Shown here piece by piece: positions 48,616 through 56,662 of a stretch of 64,000 bases of DNA. The stretch's first letter is position 1. Each line of letters begins with the position of its first letter. The notes under the pieces are model-generated. The model was not told where the DNA came from. It was given only the letters and a program-made list of their open reading frames with translations, and ran no database searches. The DNA comes from Candidatus Saccharibacteria bacterium UBA6664 (GTDB lineage: Bacteria > Patescibacteriota > Saccharimonadia > Saccharimonadales > Saccharimonadaceae), in NCBI GenBank assembly GCA_002455275.1, contig DKKO01000006.1, forward strand, positions 50,850 to 114,849, in the 5' to 3' direction. Position numbers and translations under genes: made by a program.

Positions 48616-49251
48616 ATGAAATTACTACTGACATCTAGCGGACTTTCAAAGCGAGCAATTGGTGAAGCTTTGCAACAAATGGTAGGCAAGCCAGCAAGCG
48701 ACTGCAAGGTAGGCTTTGTGCCAACAGCCGCTAACGTAGAGCCATACAATAAAACATGGCTGATTGCTCAGTTTCAGCAACTGCAACGCTACGGTTTTTA
48801 CGATATAGACATAGTAGACATTAGTGCTGCTGGCGTAGATTGGCGCGGCCGATTGGCTGATGTGGACGTGCTGTGGTTGAGCGGAGGCAATACGTTTCAC
48901 TTGTTGGATCAGGTGCGAAAAACCGGCTTTGATAAGTGGCTGAAAGAAAATATCGAAAGCAAAGTATTTGTGGGCGGCAGTGCAAGTACGATGGTTATGA
49001 CACCAAGTATAGAGATTGCGCTACCGATAGACGATAATTCTATGGGTTTGACTGATTTGTCTGGCTTGGGCTATGTAGACTTTGAAATAAATGTGCACTG
49101 CGACGAAGCAGGGCTGAATGCTACAGAGGAATACGCAAAAAACAGGCCGAACGATGTGTATGCGCTCGATGATCTAAGCGCGTTAAAGATAATTGACGGT
49201 GATGTAGAGGTAATATCTGGCGGTAGCTGGAGACTCTACAAAAAGCAGTAA
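48616..49251 (+). CDS. Peptidase S51 (dipeptidase E-like) family protein
   Basis: MKLLLTSSGL..., LWLSGGNTFHLL, GGSASTMV. TATACT at 48604-09 is followed by 6 nt and then the ATG. Confidence 0.75.
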   Translation: MKLLLTSSGLSKRAIGEALQQMVGKPASDCKVGFVPTAANVEPYNKTWLIAQFQQLQRYGFYDIDIVDISAAGVDWRGRLADVDVLWLSGGNTFHLLDQVRKTGFDKWLKENIESKVFVGGSASTMVMTPSIEIALPIDDNSMGLTDLSGLGYVDFEINVHCDEAGLNATEEYAKNRPNDVYALDDLSALKIIDGDVEVISGGSWRLYKKQ

Positions 49252-49583
49252 TGGCCTACGATACAACGCTTGAAGAACGAATCGACGAGGTAGTCGGCAG
49301 TTGGGGCTTAGACGTGCCAAAACGTAAAATGTTTGGCGGGCTAGGCTATTTTATCAATCGTAATATGGCATTTGGCATAAAAACAGACGAGCTGATAGTA
49401 AAAGCGGCTGAACTTACCGTAGAAAAATTGCTGCAAGAGCCTGGGCTAGACTACTTTACCTATGGTGGGAAAAGTATGAAAAGTTGGTTGCAAGCTGAGG
49501 CGGATGTACTTGATGAAGATAACTTGAAGCGACTTCTAGAGATAAGTCGTGACTACACGCTAACATTGCCACCAAAACCTTAG
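49251..49583 (+). CDS. TfoX N-terminal domain protein
   Basis: 110 aa. KRKMFGGLGYFINRNMAFGI is typical of the TfoX/Sxy N-domain. Confidence 0.7.
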   Translation: MAYDTTLEERIDEVVGSWGLDVPKRKMFGGLGYFINRNMAFGIKTDELIVKAAELTVEKLLQEPGLDYFTYGGKSMKSWLQAEADVLDEDNLKRLLEISRDYTLTLPPKP

Positions 49584-50755: not shown

Positions 50756-51376
50756 ATGACGAAACAGCAACAATTTCAGCTGGTAGAATGGATGCTTGCT
50801 TTGCTGGTGACAGCGCTAAGCTTTTTTGTATGGTTTAGCGTGCGAGGTGATGGCAATTTGAGTATATATGATGTATTTCCACCTCTAGGTCTGATTGCGT
50901 TCGGGCTGATGTGGACACACTACATTGGTGGTGCATTGCGACGAATGTGGGGGATAAAGAAGCAGAGCAACGATGTGTATTGGAGTGTTTCTACCGGCGC
51001 CGTGTTGGTATTGATAATAGCACACCCATTGCTGCTGAACTACGGGTTGATACAAGATGGCCTGGGGCTACCACCGGCAAGCTATTCGGCTGCATACCCA
51101 GGCAAGGAAGCAATATTACTACTTGGAACGCTATCGCTTTTCGCATTTTTGGCCTTCGAGCTGCGCCGATGGTATGGCACTCGAAACTGGTGGCATATTG
51201 TAGATAAAATTCAGCTTGTTGCAATGGCAGCAATATTTACGCACGCACTAATACTAGGCAGGGAACTGACGGTAGGATGGTTTCAGGTGGTGTGGTGGCT
51301 GTACGGAATTAGCCTGGTAGCGGCTGTGACATATAGCTACTGGTATGATAAGCAAACAAACGCGAAGGAGGCATAG
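50756..51376 (+). CDS. Polytopic membrane protein with four intramembrane His (possible b-type haem / ferric-reductase-like domain)
   Basis: About 6 TM. His residues in WTHYIGG, IIAHPLL, WWHIVD and FTHALIL. The function is an inference. Confidence 0.45.
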   Translation: MTKQQQFQLVEWMLALLVTALSFFVWFSVRGDGNLSIYDVFPPLGLIAFGLMWTHYIGGALRRMWGIKKQSNDVYWSVSTGAVLVLIIAHPLLLNYGLIQDGLGLPPASYSAAYPGKEAILLLGTLSLFAFLAFELRRWYGTRNWWHIVDKIQLVAMAAIFTHALILGRELTVGWFQVVWWLYGISLVAAVTYSYWYDKQTNAKEA

Positions 51377-51377
51377 C

Positions 51378-51839
51378 ATGGAAGAGAATAATTCGAACTC
51401 AATAAAATTCGTGGTACTAATGGTGGCGGCAGTGCTGCTGATTGTGGTGGGTGGACTCGCCTGGATGGTGTTTGGGCAGAAAGATAACGATGCCGATGAC
51501 ACAGGTGGCTCAAGCGCAACAAACAAGACAAGCTCGAATGATAGTGATTCACAATCGGTGGTCGCGGCTGAGAGCGTAGAGATTGTATTTACCGACGATG
51601 GCTTTGACAAAAGCAGCTACGGTGTTAAAAGTGGAGGTGAGGTAACGGTGAAGAACAATTCATCGGGGGATCTGCAATTTTCGTCTGACGACCACCCAAC
51701 ACATCTTGACGACACAGAACTCAACCTAGAGGTCTTAGCGGCAGGTGAAAGCATCACTTTTTCACCAGAAACCACGGGCACATGGGGAGTACACGACCAT
51801 TTGCACGACCAATTCACCACAACTCTCGTTGTGAAATAG
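51378..51839 (+). CDS. Membrane-anchored cupredoxin-like domain protein
   Basis: Start at ATG 51378 (MEENNSNS...). One TM, a Ser/Asp linker, and a C-terminal beta-sandwich-like segment with His cluster DDHPTH...WGVHDHLHDQ. Confidence 0.55.
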   Translation: MEENNSNSIKFVVLMVAAVLLIVVGGLAWMVFGQKDNDADDTGGSSATNKTSSNDSDSQSVVAAESVEIVFTDDGFDKSSYGVKSGGEVTVKNNSSGDLQFSSDDHPTHLDDTELNLEVLAAGESITFSPETTGTWGVHDHLHDQFTTTLVVK

Positions 51840-51884
51840 CCAAATTTGCTACAATAGATTTATACAAAAACGGAGGGAAGTGCT

Positions 51885-54128
51885 GTGTTAGGAAAGTTTG
51901 AAGGCGCACCGAAATGGCTGCGAATATTGATACCGACAGCGTTGATAGTTGTTTGGTTTGGCGTGTCGGCTGTCGGCGGCCCATACTTCGGTAAGATTGA
52001 GGAAGTTGCCGATAATGGTTTTGCTGGATTTTTGCCAAAGAGTGCTGAATCAACGAAAGTTAATAAGCAGCTCGAAAAGTTTCAGGACGACACCACGCTA
52101 CCTGCGATTGTTTTGTTTCATAGCGATAAAAAGTTTAGCAAAGCAGATGTAAGCACAATTGATAAAACCGCAGAAGAACTTGAATGTGCGGAAGGCATAA
52201 GCGAGGATCCAAGTCCAGCCGTACTTTCTGAGGATGGCAAGGCGGTGCTGGTCGCAGTACCTGTCGACTCAGGCTCCGAGCTAGAACTTGTGACGGCAAA
52301 CATCGAAAGGATATATAGTGAAGTTGACATAGAAGGTGCAAGCTTTCATGTTACTGGCCCGGCCGCGTTTGCTGCTGGTTTGAACAAGGCATTTGCTGGA
52401 ATCGACGGGATACTGCTGCTTACTGCGCTTGCTGTTGTGTTTGTGATTCTAATTGTGGTATATCGCTCGGTTCTATTACCAATCATCGTGCTATTAACCA
52501 GCATCTTTGCACTAAGCGCCAGCATCATGCTGGTGTGGTGGCTAGCTAAAAACGATATTGTGTCGTTGAACGGCCAGGTACAAGGCATACTGTTTATATT
52601 AGTAATCGGCGCGGCGACTGACTATTCTCTACTTTTCGTGTCGCGCTTCAGAGAATCATTATACGAAAACGCCAGCAAACTTCACGCAATTGCGGAATCT
52701 TACAAGGGCGCGTTTGAACCAATTATCGCTAGTGGGGGAACGGTCATTGTAGGCTTGATGTGCTTGTTGCTATCTGACCTAGAATCGAACAAAGCACTTG
52801 CACCAGTGGGTTCTATCGGCGTGGCATTCGCGATGATATCTGCGCTAACATTTTTGCCTGCAGTGCTGTATGCGTTTGGTAGAGGAAGTTTTTGGCCATT
52901 TATGCCAAGCACTGAGCCAAAGCAAGTTAAGAAGCACAAAGAACGACTTGCTAAAGGTCTATGGCACAAAGTAGGTAATTTAGTGCAAACGCACGGTCGT
53001 GCAGCCTGGATTGCAAGTACTGTCGCGTTGCTTGTGCTCGCCATGTTCTCGACGCAGTTAAAAGCGGATGGCGTGGAGCAGAGCGATTTGATACTAGGAC
53101 AATCTGATGCACGTGATGGGCAAGAAATTTTGAATGATCATTTCCCGGGTGGTTCGGGTAGCCCTGTGCAGATTGTGGCGCAGGATGATAACTGGGAAGA
53201 CGTCGTGAAATTGGTGGACGCCGACAAAGGCATTGATGGCATTGTGGCGGTAGCAATCAACAGCCCTAGCGGTACAATGCCTGTAGGCAAAGCAGCCGAT
53301 GAATTCATGAAAGAGTTTCGGGCAAAAGTTGAAGCTGAGGCAAATATTCCAAAGCAAACGCCAAACTACGAATTGATAATCGACTCGGCTGTCGATAATG
53401 CGAATCCATTTGGCGCATCGCAGGCAAGGTCGGAAGACGGGCAAATTTTACTGCAAGCAACACTTTTGAAGGAACCAGATAGTCAGTATTCAAAAGACAC
53501 CGTTGTGCGACTCCGCGACAAGCTTGACGATGTTTCGCGTGATGTATTAGTGGGCGGTCCGACCGCAATTCAACAAGATACAATTACGGCTTCTAAGCGA
53601 GATAGGGAAATAATCATCCCTACGGTGCTTATCGCAATAACCATCATCTTAATGGTGTTGTTACGCGCCGTAGTTGCACCACTGCTACTACTCGCAAGTA
53701 CTGTACTGTCTTTCGCGGCAACACTCGGCGTAGCCGCGCTGCTATTCAACGGAGTAATGAACTTTCCGGGCGCTGACCCGTCGGTTGTGCTATTTGGCTT
53801 TGTGTTCTTGGTAGCGCTTGGAATAGATTACAATATTTTTCTAATGACTCGCGTGAGAGAAGAGACCGTTAAGCATGGCACAGCAAAGGGCGTGATAAAA
53901 GGTTTGGTAGTTACCGGTAGTGTAATTACGAGTGCAGGTATTGTACTAGCAGCCACGTTTGCCGCATTGGGTGTGATACCAATTTTGTTCCTCTTCCAAA
54001 TCGCTTTCATTGTAGCATTCGGTGTGCTGCTCGACACATTTGTCGTGCGTTCGCTACTTGTACCGGCGCTCATTCGTGACATTGGACCATTTGTATGGTG
54101 GCCGTCGAAATTGAAAAGCAAGAAATAA
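51885..54128 (+). CDS. MMPL/RND-superfamily transporter
   Basis: 747 aa. Two 6-TM bundles, each followed by an ectodomain. GAATDYSLLFVSRFRE and LGIDYNIFLMTRVREE. SD GGAGGG 7 nt before the GTG start. Confidence 0.88.
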   Translation: MLGKFEGAPKWLRILIPTALIVVWFGVSAVGGPYFGKIEEVADNGFAGFLPKSAESTKVNKQLEKFQDDTTLPAIVLFHSDKKFSKADVSTIDKTAEELECAEGISEDPSPAVLSEDGKAVLVAVPVDSGSELELVTANIERIYSEVDIEGASFHVTGPAAFAAGLNKAFAGIDGILLLTALAVVFVILIVVYRSVLLPIIVLLTSIFALSASIMLVWWLAKNDIVSLNGQVQGILFILVIGAATDYSLLFVSRFRESLYENASKLHAIAESYKGAFEPIIASGGTVIVGLMCLLLSDLESNKALAPVGSIGVAFAMISALTFLPAVLYAFGRGSFWPFMPSTEPKQVKKHKERLAKGLWHKVGNLVQTHGRAAWIASTVALLVLAMFSTQLKADGVEQSDLILGQSDARDGQEILNDHFPGGSGSPVQIVAQDDNWEDVVKLVDADKGIDGIVAVAINSPSGTMPVGKAADEFMKEFRAKVEAEANIPKQTPNYELIIDSAVDNANPFGASQARSEDGQILLQATLLKEPDSQYSKDTVVRLRDKLDDVSRDVLVGGPTAIQQDTITASKRDREIIIPTVLIAITIILMVLLRAVVAPLLLLASTVLSFAATLGVAALLFNGVMNFPGADPSVVLFGFVFLVALGIDYNIFLMTRVREETVKHGTAKGVIKGLVVTGSVITSAGIVLAATFAALGVIPILFLFQIAFIVAFGVLLDTFVVRSLLVPALIRDIGPFVWWPSKLKSKK

Positions 54129-54148
54129 ATTGATACGCTAGGGAGACT

Positions 54149-55123
54149 ATGACTGATACGCAAACACCAACTGATATTTTCTTGTGGGCAAACCAAAATG
54201 ACGGCATAAAAAATGAGCTCGAGCTTGAACTATTTGTGTTCAATAAGAACTACACGCCGTATTCTATGAAGTTTTCAAAAGACCTAGAGCACCAGCTGCG
54301 CGCGATGTTTATTTACGATGTAATAAATACTATAAACTTTGGAGCAGGCACTGGCTTAAGCGTTCGCGACTACGAATTATCAGAGGCGGAAGATAATGTT
54401 TTACTACGAACGGAACTAGAGAAAGTTGAGCGTGCAAAAACGCTGATCAATTTACTTGAACACGAGCGGGGCACTATTGAACCATTTTCTGAAGGCGATC
54501 ACGAGTTCAAACGCATAAAGGGTGTGGCCCTACGTTGTACGAAAAGCGACGGCAGTGACGCGTTCTACATAGTGAAGGCAGTGCAGCAAAGCAACGTGCT
54601 TGCGGGCGCCGTGAGCTGGGAGCTAACCGGTGGTACATTGGCACCATTTAAAGCTGACGTTGGCGTAAAAATGCCAAACGACAACCAAGTGATGGTAGTA
54701 GGTAATGACATATTTATTTTCAACCAAGGCAAGTTTGAAAAACTATTCCAGTACGAATTCAAAAAGCAACTACTAGCAGACGAAAAGGTAGCGGAGATTG
54801 AAAAAGCCTACAAACTGAGCTTTCCTGAAGGACTGGATTTGCAAAGCTTGGTGCGTGAGCGACGTAAGATTGTAAACAAGTTGCAAAAACTTGAAGTCGG
54901 CGCAGTAACTCAAGAGCAGGCGATAGAGTATGCAGACACCATGGAGCTGGAGCTTATGAGTGACGAAAAGGACCAAATTATTATCATGGATGGCCGAGAT
55001 CTCGACATGTTTGTGAATTTGATCAATGAAGATTACATTACGAGTGAGCTAACAGGTAAGCGCTACGAGATTAAAAGCAAGAAACTACTGGGTGAGCCCG
55101 AGGGTGAACCTCCTCGTGGCTAG
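54149..55123 (+). CDS. DUF4868 (Kiwa KwaB-like) family candidate
   Basis: 324 aa, soluble, no catalytic motif. The overall length, the central block VVGNDIFIFNQGKFEKLFQYEF and the C-terminal block FVNLINEDYITSELTGKRYEIKSKK match my recollection of DUF4868 proteins. This needs HMM confirmation. Confidence 0.45.
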   Translation: MTDTQTPTDIFLWANQNDGIKNELELELFVFNKNYTPYSMKFSKDLEHQLRAMFIYDVINTINFGAGTGLSVRDYELSEAEDNVLLRTELEKVERAKTLINLLEHERGTIEPFSEGDHEFKRIKGVALRCTKSDGSDAFYIVKAVQQSNVLAGAVSWELTGGTLAPFKADVGVKMPNDNQVMVVGNDIFIFNQGKFEKLFQYEFKKQLLADEKVAEIEKAYKLSFPEGLDLQSLVRERRKIVNKLQKLEVGAVTQEQAIEYADTMELELMSDEKDQIIIMDGRDLDMFVNLINEDYITSELTGKRYEIKSKKLLGEPEGEPPRG

Positions 55124-55141
55124 TAGTCTATAATTAAATAG

Positions 55142-56662
55142 ATGAATCAAACGCTCGCGCTCGAAATAATGCTCGCTGGTCACAGCGTGTTTTTGACTGG
55201 TCCGGCAGGAGCGGGAAAGACCTATGTACTAAATCAATTTATAAAGCTTGCCAAACATGAAGGCAAGCATGTTAGCGTGACGGCCACCACTGGCTTGGCG
55301 GCGTCACATCTGGGTGGTACAACCATTCATAGCTGGAGCGGAATAGGCGTGCACGATGAATTGCCGCCGAACTTTGCTGAACATGTAAGCAAGGGACGAC
55401 GTGAAATCATCGAAAAAACGGACATATTGATAATTGATGAGATTTCGATGCTGCATGACTTTCGACTTGATATGGTGGACGAAGCCTGCCGGCTGATTCG
55501 CAAACAGCCTGATAAGCCATTCGGCGGAATTCAGCTGATAATGAGTGGTGACTTTTTCCAATTGCCCCCAGTGAATAGAAACGATGCGAGGCCCGGCAGT
55601 TTTGTGGTAAATAGCGTAGCGTGGCAAGAGCTCAACCCAGTCGTGTGCTACCTAAACGAGCAATTTCGTCACGACGATGAAAAATTAAGTGAAATTTTGC
55701 AGGCGATGCGCGAGCAAGACGTGCGCAGGCATCACGCCGAAACATTGCTTGCTCGGGCGGAAACTACTCCACCAAGCGGCTTACTTTACACCGAGCTGCA
55801 CACGGTGAACGTGGATGTTGATAAGCAAAACGAAGCAAAACTCGATGAACTCTCTGGTGATGAGATGATATATACGCAAAGCACCACAGGTAGTGCAAAT
55901 TATGTTGAGAATTTGCAGCGCTCGGTTCTAGCCCCTGCCACATTACGACTTAAGCAAGGTGCGTTGGTGATGGCGGTGAAAAATGACATGAACAAAAAGT
56001 ACGCCAATGGTAGTATTGGCACCGTGGTAGATTTTGACCCAGCCACCGAATACCCGATTGTTGAATTTACTAATGGTAGGGAAGTGACCATGCAACCTGA
56101 TACGTGGGAGCTTCGCGATGGTGACAAAAAGCGCGCCAGCATAACGCAAATTCCGCTTCGCTTGGCGTGGGCGATAACGGTACATAAGAGCCAAGGAATG
56201 ACGCTAGACGCTGCCTTAATCGATCTACGAAAAGCATTTGTAGAGGGTATGGGCTATGTGGCACTAAGTCGCGTGCGAAACCTCGACAGCCTCTACTTAA
56301 AGGGCATTAACCGTATGGCGCTGCAAATCAGTGAAGACGCACACACGATAGACAGCTTGCTACGATCGAAATCCGCTCAGGACGCGAAGGAATTGGCTCA
56401 TTTAGAAAAGAATGCTTCAAAGCGGGCTGCCATGCCTGCGAAGTCAGCTGTAAAATCATCGAATTGGAGCGAAAAGATTGAAAAAATGCGTGAGACTTAC
56501 CCAAATGCGTATCGACCATGGACAACAGCTCAGGATTCTGAACTAAAACAATATTTTGAGAATGGCGCAGCGCTAGCAGAAATTTCAAAAAAGCTTGGGC
56601 GACACAAAGGTTCGATAGAGATGCGTTTAAAGAAGCACTACGGCGAAGACATATCACTCTAG
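55142..56662 (+). CDS. Pif1/RecD-family SF1B DNA helicase with C-terminal HTH tail
   Basis: Walker A GPAGAGKT, Walker B LIIDEISM, Pif1 signature PFGGIQLIMSGDFFQLPPV, TVHKSQGMT, YVALSRV. C-terminal WTTAQDSELKQYFENGAALAEISKKLGRHKGSIEMRL. TATAAT at 55129-34 is followed by 7 nt and then the ATG. Confidence 0.88.
   Translation: MNQTLALEIMLAGHSVFLTGPAGAGKTYVLNQFIKLAKHEGKHVSVTATTGLAASHLGGTTIHSWSGIGVHDELPPNFAEHVSKGRREIIEKTDILIIDEISMLHDFRLDMVDEACRLIRKQPDKPFGGIQLIMSGDFFQLPPVNRNDARPGSFVVNSVAWQELNPVVCYLNEQFRHDDEKLSEILQAMREQDVRRHHAETLLARAETTPPSGLLYTELHTVNVDVDKQNEAKLDELSGDEMIYTQSTTGSANYVENLQRSVLAPATLRLKQGALVMAVKNDMNKKYANGSIGTVVDFDPATEYPIVEFTNGREVTMQPDTWELRDGDKKRASITQIPLRLAWAITVHKSQGMTLDAALIDLRKAFVEGMGYVALSRVRNLDSLYLKGINRMALQISEDAHTIDSLLRSKSAQDAKELAHLEKNASKRAAMPAKSAVKSSNWSEKIEKMRETYPNAYRPWTTAQDSELKQYFENGAALAEISKKLGRHKGSIEMRLKKHYGEDISL

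Follow-up and report, generated by a model that had tools for sequence, protein, structure and literature searches.

The window studied here is a 64-kb stretch of contig DKKO01000006.1 from Candidatus Saccharibacteria bacterium UBA6664 (positions 50,850 to 114,849). It carries a gene for a KwaB-like protein of the DUF4868 family, located between genes encoding an MMPL transporter and a Pif1-family helicase of superfamily 1B (SF1B). The data presented below indicated that the product is a full-length homologue of KwaB, a component of the anti-phage system Kiwa, that no KwaA partner is encoded with it, and that its linkage to the helicase is conserved across Saccharibacteria. A first-pass annotation made from the sequence alone had drawn attention to this gene. 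The blocks that it quoted from the centre (VVGNDIFIFNQGKFEKLFQYEF) and the C-terminus (FVNLINEDYITSELTGKRYEIKSKK) of the product were both found within the open reading frame (ORF) 54149-55123, and all its coordinates were correct: the distance between the MMPL stop codon and the ATG is 20 nt on the same strand, and the helicase gene starts 18 nt past the TAG stop codon. The features of the locus are listed in Table 1.

Table 1. Features of the KwaB-like/Pif1 locus, with positions in the 64-kb window.
Feature	Coordinates	Strand	Description and evidence
MMPL transporter gene	51885..54128 (stop codon 54126-54128)	+	747 aa; Pfam E 6e-111
Shine-Dalgarno-like AGGGAG in the MMPL/KwaB-like spacer	54140..54145	+	direct sequence reading
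KwaB-like (DUF4868) gene, KwaA-less subfamily	54149..55123	+	324 aa, ATG start, TAG stop; ORF, Pfam, PADLOC, PDB profile, AlphaFold2/Foldseek
N-terminal domain	54149..54685	+	~residues 1-179, matching the Rossmann-like N-domain of KwaB; alignments, PADLOC, Foldseek
C-terminal DUF4868 domain	54686..55084	+	~residues 180-312; Pfam 180-302; DNA-binding domain in E. coli KwaB
Intergenic spacer, KwaB-like gene to Pif1 gene	55124..55141	+	18 nt, TATAAT at 55129-55134; sequence, promoter/terminator scan
Pif1-family SF1B helicase gene, conserved downstream partner	55142..56662	+	506 aa; Pfam, PDB, PHROG, motifs, linkage
C-terminal tri-helical / helix-turn-helix-like helicase tail	56471..56638	+	residues 444-499; PHROG, sub-threshold Pfam, Southlakia orthologue

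The likeness to DUF4868 and KwaB, suggested at first pass, proved to be true. The first-pass annotation had proposed profile searches and a structural comparison. The Pfam model PF16162 (KwaB/DUF4868) matched residues 180-302 with 34.2 bits against a gathering score of 26.3 (E 3.3e-8), and the PADLOC KwaB model PDLC00233 matched residues 22-312 over positions 18-312 of its 320 positions (E 3.7e-14). A single-sequence search of the PDB gave no match; a profile made of 27 family members retrieved the E. coli KwaB structures 9o0i and 9mrx (E 6e-11, residues 77-316 against 70-317). An AlphaFold2 model computed on the family alignment (predicted local distance difference test 88, predicted TM-score 0.78) was compared with the PDB using Foldseek, and KwaB was the sole fold matched significantly (9mrx, 9mtn and 9nyu; E ~2e-13, probability 1.0). 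The alignment spanned ~320 columns, corresponding to the full length of the protein, with a TM-score of 0.45-0.5. This value suggests that the inter-domain pose predicted for the KwaB-like protein differs from that of KwaB.

KwaB is divided into a Rossmann-like N-domain and a DUF4868 C-domain (PMC11785009). The KwaB-like protein shares with E. coli KwaB (PF16162; 9mrx, 9mtn, 9nyu, 9o0i) its family, its length and this two-domain fold, and several of its lysines in the region of the DNA channel (K143, K174, K195 and K244) may correspond to basic positions of KwaB. In family alignments, the motif DIFLWAN in the N-terminal domain was nearly invariant across the KwaA-less clade. Unlike E. coli KwaB, to which it is ~14% identical in the structural alignment, the KwaB-like protein has no KwaA partner, is paired with a helicase, is vertically inherited and evolves slowly. 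The ORF 54149-55123 is a full-length KwaB/DUF4868 homologue.

Canonical KwaA is a protein of ~180-200 aa with four transmembrane (TM) segments, encoded immediately upstream of kwaB and usually overlapping it. In Kiwa, deletion of either KwaA or KwaB ends defence, and KwaB works from a membrane supercomplex anchored by KwaA. No KwaA was found at the locus or elsewhere in the window: its 64 kb contain just four small multi-TM ORFs (a Rce1-like protease, an ABC-2 permease and two unknowns), and all of them missed the PADLOC KwaA models at E<=0.1. As a positive control, a genuine KwaA matched 13 of these models with E-values down to 1e-28, so the earlier statement that no KwaA-like ORF exists here was confirmed for the whole window. 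Orthologous loci in other genera likewise lacked KwaA. Of the residues with which KwaB contacts KwaA, four could be mapped (P100, N101, Q103 and Y157, but not R21 and R35), and all four are replaced (by R107, G108, I110 and L164). This is a weak test, since KwaA-linked KwaBs from other clusters differ at the same positions. Relatives with a KwaA gene overlapping their start were found only at ~25% identity to the KwaB-like protein, in defence-island settings containing patatin, DUF4145, reverse transcriptase or DUF87 genes. No defence-island context was detected around the KwaB-like/Pif1 pair, the neighbours of which had no PADLOC match. Since Kiwa requires KwaA and none is present in the window, the KwaB-like/Pif1 locus is not a standard Kiwa system.

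To tabulate the neighbours, we analysed 48 loci from species-representative genomes and 80 metagenome loci; dereplication yielded 23 lineages with KwaB-like proteins <90% identical to each other and >=4 kb of sequence on both flanks. Relatives of the KwaB-like protein numbered 2,838 among 90%-identity clusters. The best 120 of these all shared >=68% identity with it, had a length of ~324 aa and, where a source was named, were labelled Saccharibacteria. A Pif1 orthologue was found downstream, on the same strand, at every chromosomal locus with ~1 kb or more of downstream sequence and in 23 of the 23 dereplicated lineages, an apparent absence in L120 being a cut-off artefact. Other neighbour families included RNase HI upstream (11/23), glycyl-tRNA synthetase (GlyRS; 10/23), CofD (9/23), GH1 (8/23) and MMPL (4/23). 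The spacer between the two genes measured 4-5 nt in oral Nanosynbacter and Minimicrobia and ~20-100 nt in many other lineages, including the closest relatives of the window. A divergent locus (L053; 48% identity, 30% GC) also had a Pif1 gene, the product of which is 48% identical, 5 nt downstream. In Southlakia epibionticum ML1 the order is reversed and the genes are still adjacent, the helicase SEML1_0264 being followed by the DUF4868 gene SEML1_0265 (PMC10633639 Tables S1, S2). The DUF4868-Pif1 pairing noticed in the first-pass annotation thus recurred in all the lineages tabulated and withstood the swap in Southlakia. The Pif1 adjacency is conserved and not due to chance, and the MMPL adjacency is incidental.

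The downstream gene encodes a Pif1-family helicase with a score of 131 bits against a Pfam PIF1 cut-off of 25.9 (E 5e-38). Its matches in the PDB were yeast Pif1 (5o6b, E 3e-70), human PIF1 (6hpt, E 2e-63) and Bacteroides Pif1 (5ftb, E 4e-50), and the PHROG match was a Dda-like helicase (E 2e-63). Walker A (GxGKT), Walker B (DE) and the sequences GDFFQLPP, HKSQG and YVALSR (motifs III, V and VI) were invariant in 12 of 12 paired helicase orthologues. Judged by these motifs, the Pif1 partner is catalytically intact, with the full core of known Pif1 SF1B and phage Dda-like helicases. It differs from known Pif1 helicases in having a helix-turn-helix (HTH)-like tail in most lineages and a consistent KwaB-like linkage, which we found described for no Pif1. 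The HTH tail proposed at first pass received weak support: the PHROG family phrog_323 ("transcriptional regulator") matched residues 444-499 with E 2.6e-6, whereas Pfam HTH matches stayed below threshold. A tri-helical domain was assigned to the Southlakia orthologue (PMC10633639 Table S2). The tail (~80 aa) is absent from some Nanosynbacter orthologues (417 aa, L019:8980-10233) and kept in most lineages, other oral ones and environmental ones (~505 aa).

The hexamer TATAAT had been proposed as a -10 box of the helicase gene's own. The hexamer is present, but a promoter role was not supported: no Shine-Dalgarno sequence, -35 element or terminator was found in the 18-nt spacer by sequence inspection or by a promoter/terminator scan, and the scan did not call the TATAAT. 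As the spacer is just 4-5 nt in most relatives, this hexamer is not a conserved promoter.

The helicase core also matched the PADLOC helicase models PDC-S68, PDC-M16, type IV CRISPR RecD and Nhi (E 1e-18 to 1e-9), with which it has an SF1 ATPase core in common. These matches were partial and covered the generic ATPase core (for example, residues 3-144 against positions 610-745 of 1221, in models of 700-1270 positions), and no other components of these systems were found among the neighbours, which had no PADLOC match. Membership in the PDC-S68, PDC-M16 or type IV RecD systems was rejected because the core match is partial and the components are missing.

In the window as in Nanosynbacter, the mraZ-rsmH-ftsL-ftsI cluster follows shortly after the pair. 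Between distant genera, identity was 66% for the KwaB-like protein, 72% for GlyRS, 70% for Pif1 and 55% for CofD. The ratio of non-synonymous to synonymous substitution rates (dN/dS) against the closest relative was 0.012 for the KwaB-like gene, with higher values for MMPL (0.027) and Pif1 (0.036). When the next relatives were compared, the KwaB-like gene had the lowest dN in the neighbourhood (0.10, compared with 0.18-0.31 for the other genes). In a neighbour-joining tree built from 44 sequences and 323 columns with 100 bootstraps, all KwaA-less proteins formed one clade (91% bootstrap), in which the Pif1-linked chromosomal genes made up a monophyletic, short-branched subclade (87-88%) emerging from a poorly resolved bush of sequences from phages and mobile genetic elements (MGEs). 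At well over 100 chromosomal loci, the KwaB-like ORF was uninterrupted and of full length. The KwaB-like/Pif1 pair belongs to the conserved backbone and is inherited vertically under strong purifying selection.

Canonical Kiwa is prone to horizontal gene transfer, with a phylogeny that departs from that of its hosts and >53% of loci associated with MGEs (PMC11785009). The pair does not behave as mobile defence, because its clade is monophyletic and tracks the lineages, its position near mraZ is conserved, the dN/dS of the KwaB-like gene is as low as 0.012 and the GC content shows no anomaly (0.46 at the locus, as in the rest of the window). The first-pass annotation had placed the gene at the end of a stretch of accessory-looking genes (45-56 kb). 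This holds for the upstream part, 45-54 kb, which varies between lineages, but not for the KwaB-like/Pif1 pair. The DUF4868 gene of Southlakia carries the flag "core family = 0", which refers to a pan-bacterial set of 921 families (PMC10633639); on this basis, the flag is uninformative about conservation within Saccharibacteria.

Outside the chromosomal clade, the closest outgroups (47-26% identity) were found in phage- or MGE-like arrays with genes for terminase, portal, single-stranded DNA-binding protein (SSB), VRR-NUC, RusA, ParB or FtsK-nuclease proteins. A scan of viral contigs using a closer homologue set as the query identified ~50 loci with a 38-45%-identity homologue, and none had a Pif1 gene within 6 kb. 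In at least six distinct phage/MGE lineages, the KwaB-like gene was placed right after recombination/replication genes or before rusA. The gene orders were integrase, exonuclease VIII-like, Sak4-like annealing protein, exonuclease, SSB, KwaB-like (L071); exonuclease VIII-like, Sak4-like, KwaB-like (L113); RecT-like, exonuclease-FtsK fusion, KwaB-like (L108); replication-initiator-like HTH protein, KwaB-like (L069); ParB, KwaB-like, RtcB (L063); SSB, VRR-NUC, methyltransferase, KwaB-like (L054); and KwaB-like, RusA (L057). The phage/MGE KwaA-less proteins (L071, L108, L113; BFVD A0A8S5QWK1) are 27-47% identical to the KwaB-like protein and have in common with it the subfamily, the DIFxWAN motif and a setting among DNA-metabolism genes. 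They differ in lying within recombination/replication modules, in lacking a nearby Pif1, in their long branches and in being mobile. No homologue was detected by tblastn in the GenBank records of isolated phages (INPHARED), so these phage relatives are known from metagenomic viral contigs only, and PHROGs contains no family for the KwaB-like protein.

The viral contigs with a KwaB-like homologue were mostly ~30 kb long with 41-52% GC. Actinobacterial hosts of Saccharibacteria are high-GC organisms, and the GC content of the contigs suggests that their own hosts are Saccharibacteria-like rather than Actinomyces. The IMG/VR loci L064-L111, mostly from human samples, were temperate siphophage-like contigs with integrase, Sak4-like, SSB and terminase genes in addition to the KwaB-like gene. 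One 51.9-kb viral contig had two KwaB-like copies (L066 and L102) and is possibly a concatemer. One locus filed as viral (L062, IMGVR_UViG_3300008472_000016) contained a chromosomal-type gene (66% identity) followed after 5 nt by Pif1, and is probably a Nanosynbacter chromosomal fragment or a region flanking a prophage.

Relatives of the helicase were found at 22 other viral loci, 17 of which covered the whole helicase core at 52-58% identity; none of the 22 had a KwaB-like gene within 5 kb. In the IMG/VR loci L200-L217 (36-44% GC), the Pif1 protein is tail-less and 52-58% identical to the Saccharibacteria helicase, which suggests helicase exchange between Saccharibacteria and their phages. 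The viral Pif1 gene was followed by an exonuclease gene (phrog_298) in both contigs examined (L201 and L217). Both genes of the pair have mobile relatives, and the pairing is specific to the chromosomal clade. Acquisition of the pair en bloc from a phage was considered and is unsupported, as viral contigs hold one gene or the other, never both within 5-6 kb.

Published transposon insertion sequencing data are available for Southlakia grown in phage-free co-culture. Both the helicase and the DUF4868 gene were non-essential at three of three time points, and normalised reads stayed flat (6838, 6753 and 6657 for the helicase; 2590, 2504 and 2503 for the DUF4868 gene; PMC10633639 Table S1). Being dispensable in co-culture, both genes are therefore expected to have a conditional function. 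A toxin/antidote model, with the helicase clearing a toxic DNA binder, was weakened by the neutrality of helicase insertions in Southlakia, a conclusion limited by possible polar effects of these insertions on the downstream DUF4868 gene.

The reading that we favour, with middling confidence, is that the KwaB-like protein is a KwaA-independent DNA-binding protein of the KwaB fold that cooperates with Pif1 in a conditional DNA-transaction role. An ancestral KwaB-like copy would have become established on the chromosome of Saccharibacteria, immediately ahead of a gene for a Pif1-family 5'-3' helicase, and both genes have since been inherited together, vertically, under strong purifying selection. 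E. coli KwaB binds single- and double-stranded DNA non-specifically and stalls forks (PMC11785009). The KwaB-like protein most probably uses its KwaB fold to bind DNA ends, forks or recombination intermediates. The two proteins would form a conditional module that processes or restrains intermediates of replication and recombination, possibly including those of DNA entering the cell, and would not be triggered at the membrane as Kiwa is. In favour of this reading are the DNA-metabolism genes beside the phage homologues, the RNase HI gene upstream in 11 of 23 chromosomal lineages and the intact catalytic motifs of the Pif1 partner. What we infer is that the KwaB-like protein binds DNA, that it cooperates physically or functionally with Pif1, and which process the two serve; the neutral insertions with flat reads in Southlakia fit a conditional role.

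Several observations weigh against this reading. Joint mutation of N134, R142, R167, D169, K187 and R233 ends DNA binding by E. coli KwaB (PMC11785009), and one of these six residues is kept in kind in the KwaB-like protein (R167, replaced by K174). The conserved lysines K143, K195 and K244 adjoin three further DNA-contact positions, and R142 aligns to a gap. At 26 environmental loci, the pair is split by 0.4-2.6 kb containing genes unrelated to it, frequently in opposite orientation, so the two genes do not always form one operon. The chromosomal relative L198 (L198:2932-3948, protein P0122, 50% identity) has no Pif1 gene on its 8.8-kb contig. On phage contigs, KwaB-like genes and Pif1 relatives occur separately, never side by side. 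The genomes of Saccharibacteria are generally syntenic, and part of the Pif1 linkage may therefore be inherited gene order.

With regard to the 26 environmental loci, a hidden conserved third gene in the gaps was considered and rejected, because the inserts are of varied kinds (pilin-like, prephenate-dehydratase-like and others) and many of them run on the other strand. The L198 gene keeps the synteny with GH1 and CofD, being upstream of both, and has a Peptidase_S8 gene at the Pif1 position; its protein groups weakly with an MGE-borne copy (P0129). This locus could result from replacement by another KwaB-like lineage or from loss of Pif1.

The main competing explanation is that the pair is an anti-phage or anti-plasmid derivative of Kiwa fixed across Saccharibacteria, with the KwaB-like protein as the effector and Pif1 replacing KwaA as a sensor, loader or regulator. 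Homology to a proven defence effector argues for it, as do the frequency of helicases as defence partners, together with the several PADLOC helicase models matched by the Pif1 core, and the presence of relatives on temperate phages, which often carry defence genes. Dispensability in a phage-free co-culture is also what would be expected of defence. However, the vertical, lineage-wide and slow evolution of the pair is the opposite of that of HGT-prone Kiwa (HGT, horizontal gene transfer), KwaA is essential for Kiwa defence, and the locus has neither a defence island nor neighbours with PADLOC matches, the helicase matches being to a generic ATPase core. The phage copies themselves lie in recombination/replication modules and not at typical moron positions. 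We therefore regard a Kiwa derivative as possible but doubtful. Of the non-canonical defence arrangement initially proposed, the non-canonical part stands, with KwaA absent and Pif1 linked, whereas vertical inheritance, slow evolution and the lack of a defence island speak against defence. A related proposal sees in the pair an immunity module for DNA surveillance, independent of KwaA and coupled to a helicase, that became fixed in the core genome of the whole class; KwaB would then share ancestry with, or descend from, a DNA-binding protein of phage recombination/replication modules. We put this forward tentatively, as a rather unlikely scenario in its entirety.

The two genes might instead have no functional coupling, an ancestral order having been kept in small syntenic genomes and the KwaB-like protein working by itself, perhaps in DNA binding or as a nucleoid-associated protein. 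The insertions of unrelated genes at 26 loci, the absence of a nearby Pif1 at L198 and the phage homologues, which function without an adjacent Pif1, are in agreement with this possibility; GlyRS, CofD and the mraZ cluster likewise stay in the wider neighbourhood. Yet Pif1 was kept in all 23 lineages when no other neighbour exceeded 11, the adjacency survived both the order swap in Southlakia and divergence to 48% identity, and the 4-5-nt spacing in many lineages would imply co-transcription and possibly coupled translation. On balance, an absence of coupling appears unlikely. A Kiwa-like system in which the upstream MMPL transporter takes the place of KwaA at the membrane had been raised at first pass on account of the 20-nt same-strand spacing in this genome. 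It is effectively refuted by lack of conservation and is highly improbable: the four lineages with this adjacency are all close relatives, the upstream gene in other genera is RNase HI or another gene, and MMPL travels with a 206-aa multi-TM protein and a cupredoxin-like protein. Finally, the phage-borne nature of the closest outgroups could suggest a decaying prophage remnant without current function. This explanation was refuted, and has next to no probability, given the dN/dS of 0.012, the ORF intact at well over 100 chromosomal loci and the absence of phage genes nearby.

Other features of the neighbourhood were recorded. RNase HI also lies directly upstream of the pair in Nanosynbacter (L019:7536-7961) and Southlakia (SEML1_0262) and is absent from this window; the lineages with an upstream RNase HI include L008-L051 and L120. 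With RNase HI present, the surroundings of the pair take on a replication/repair theme. In Nanosynbacter, a 547-aa protein encoded between CofD and RNase HI (L019:5865-7508) had a weak, sub-threshold match to a RelA/SpoT domain (E 0.002). In the window, the genes for the 206-aa multi-TM protein, the cupredoxin-like protein and MMPL (50756-54128) travel together (6, 5 and 4 of the 23 lineages, respectively) and appear to form a membrane module of their own, with no relation to the KwaB-like gene; no Pfam or PADLOC match was obtained for the 206-aa protein. The variable upstream stretch also contains a small gene with a TfoX_N domain, a competence-regulator family (49251-49583), and Saccharibacteria are naturally competent (PMC10633639). 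Across the window, 61 of 72 non-overlapping ORFs are on the + strand, and GC skew is positive in 31 of 32 2-kb bins. The cumulative GC skew climbs almost throughout, consistent with one replichore and leading-strand gene orientation.

Public databases already label relatives of this protein "DUF4868 / KwaB-like domain-containing", and the Southlakia gene is listed as DUF4868 (PMC10633639). The survey of Kiwa counted KwaA+KwaB operons only (PMC11785009). In the literature searched, we found no mention of Saccharibacteria together with Pif1, nor of the terms "KwaB-like" or "KwaB homolog", and DUF4868 was rarely named. In agreement with the first-pass annotation, which had called the arrangement undescribed, no description of a KwaB-like/Pif1 pairing was encountered there; the KwaA-less subfamily, its setting in phage modules and the class-wide pairing with Pif1 all appear to be undescribed.

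KwaB has so far been understood solely as the effector of a two-gene, membrane-triggered defence. The data presented here point to a separate KwaA-less branch of KwaB that occurs both in phage recombination/replication modules and, in Saccharibacteria, in a class-wide chromosomal pairing with Pif1, and an annotation as "DUF4868/KwaB-like" is by itself no evidence of defence. To our knowledge, the cellular roles of bacterial Pif1 helicases are largely unknown, and the KwaB-like protein is a candidate cofactor for these enzymes. If the immunity-module proposal were true, it would be the first dedicated cofactor for bacterial Pif1 helicases, and its case would indicate that domestication can turn an effector of the defence type into part of a system with vertical inheritance. 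These results provide a testable role for one of the most conserved genes of unknown function in a phylum with very small genomes. As Southlakia is genetically tractable and tolerates insertions in both genes, knockouts and challenge experiments are directly feasible.

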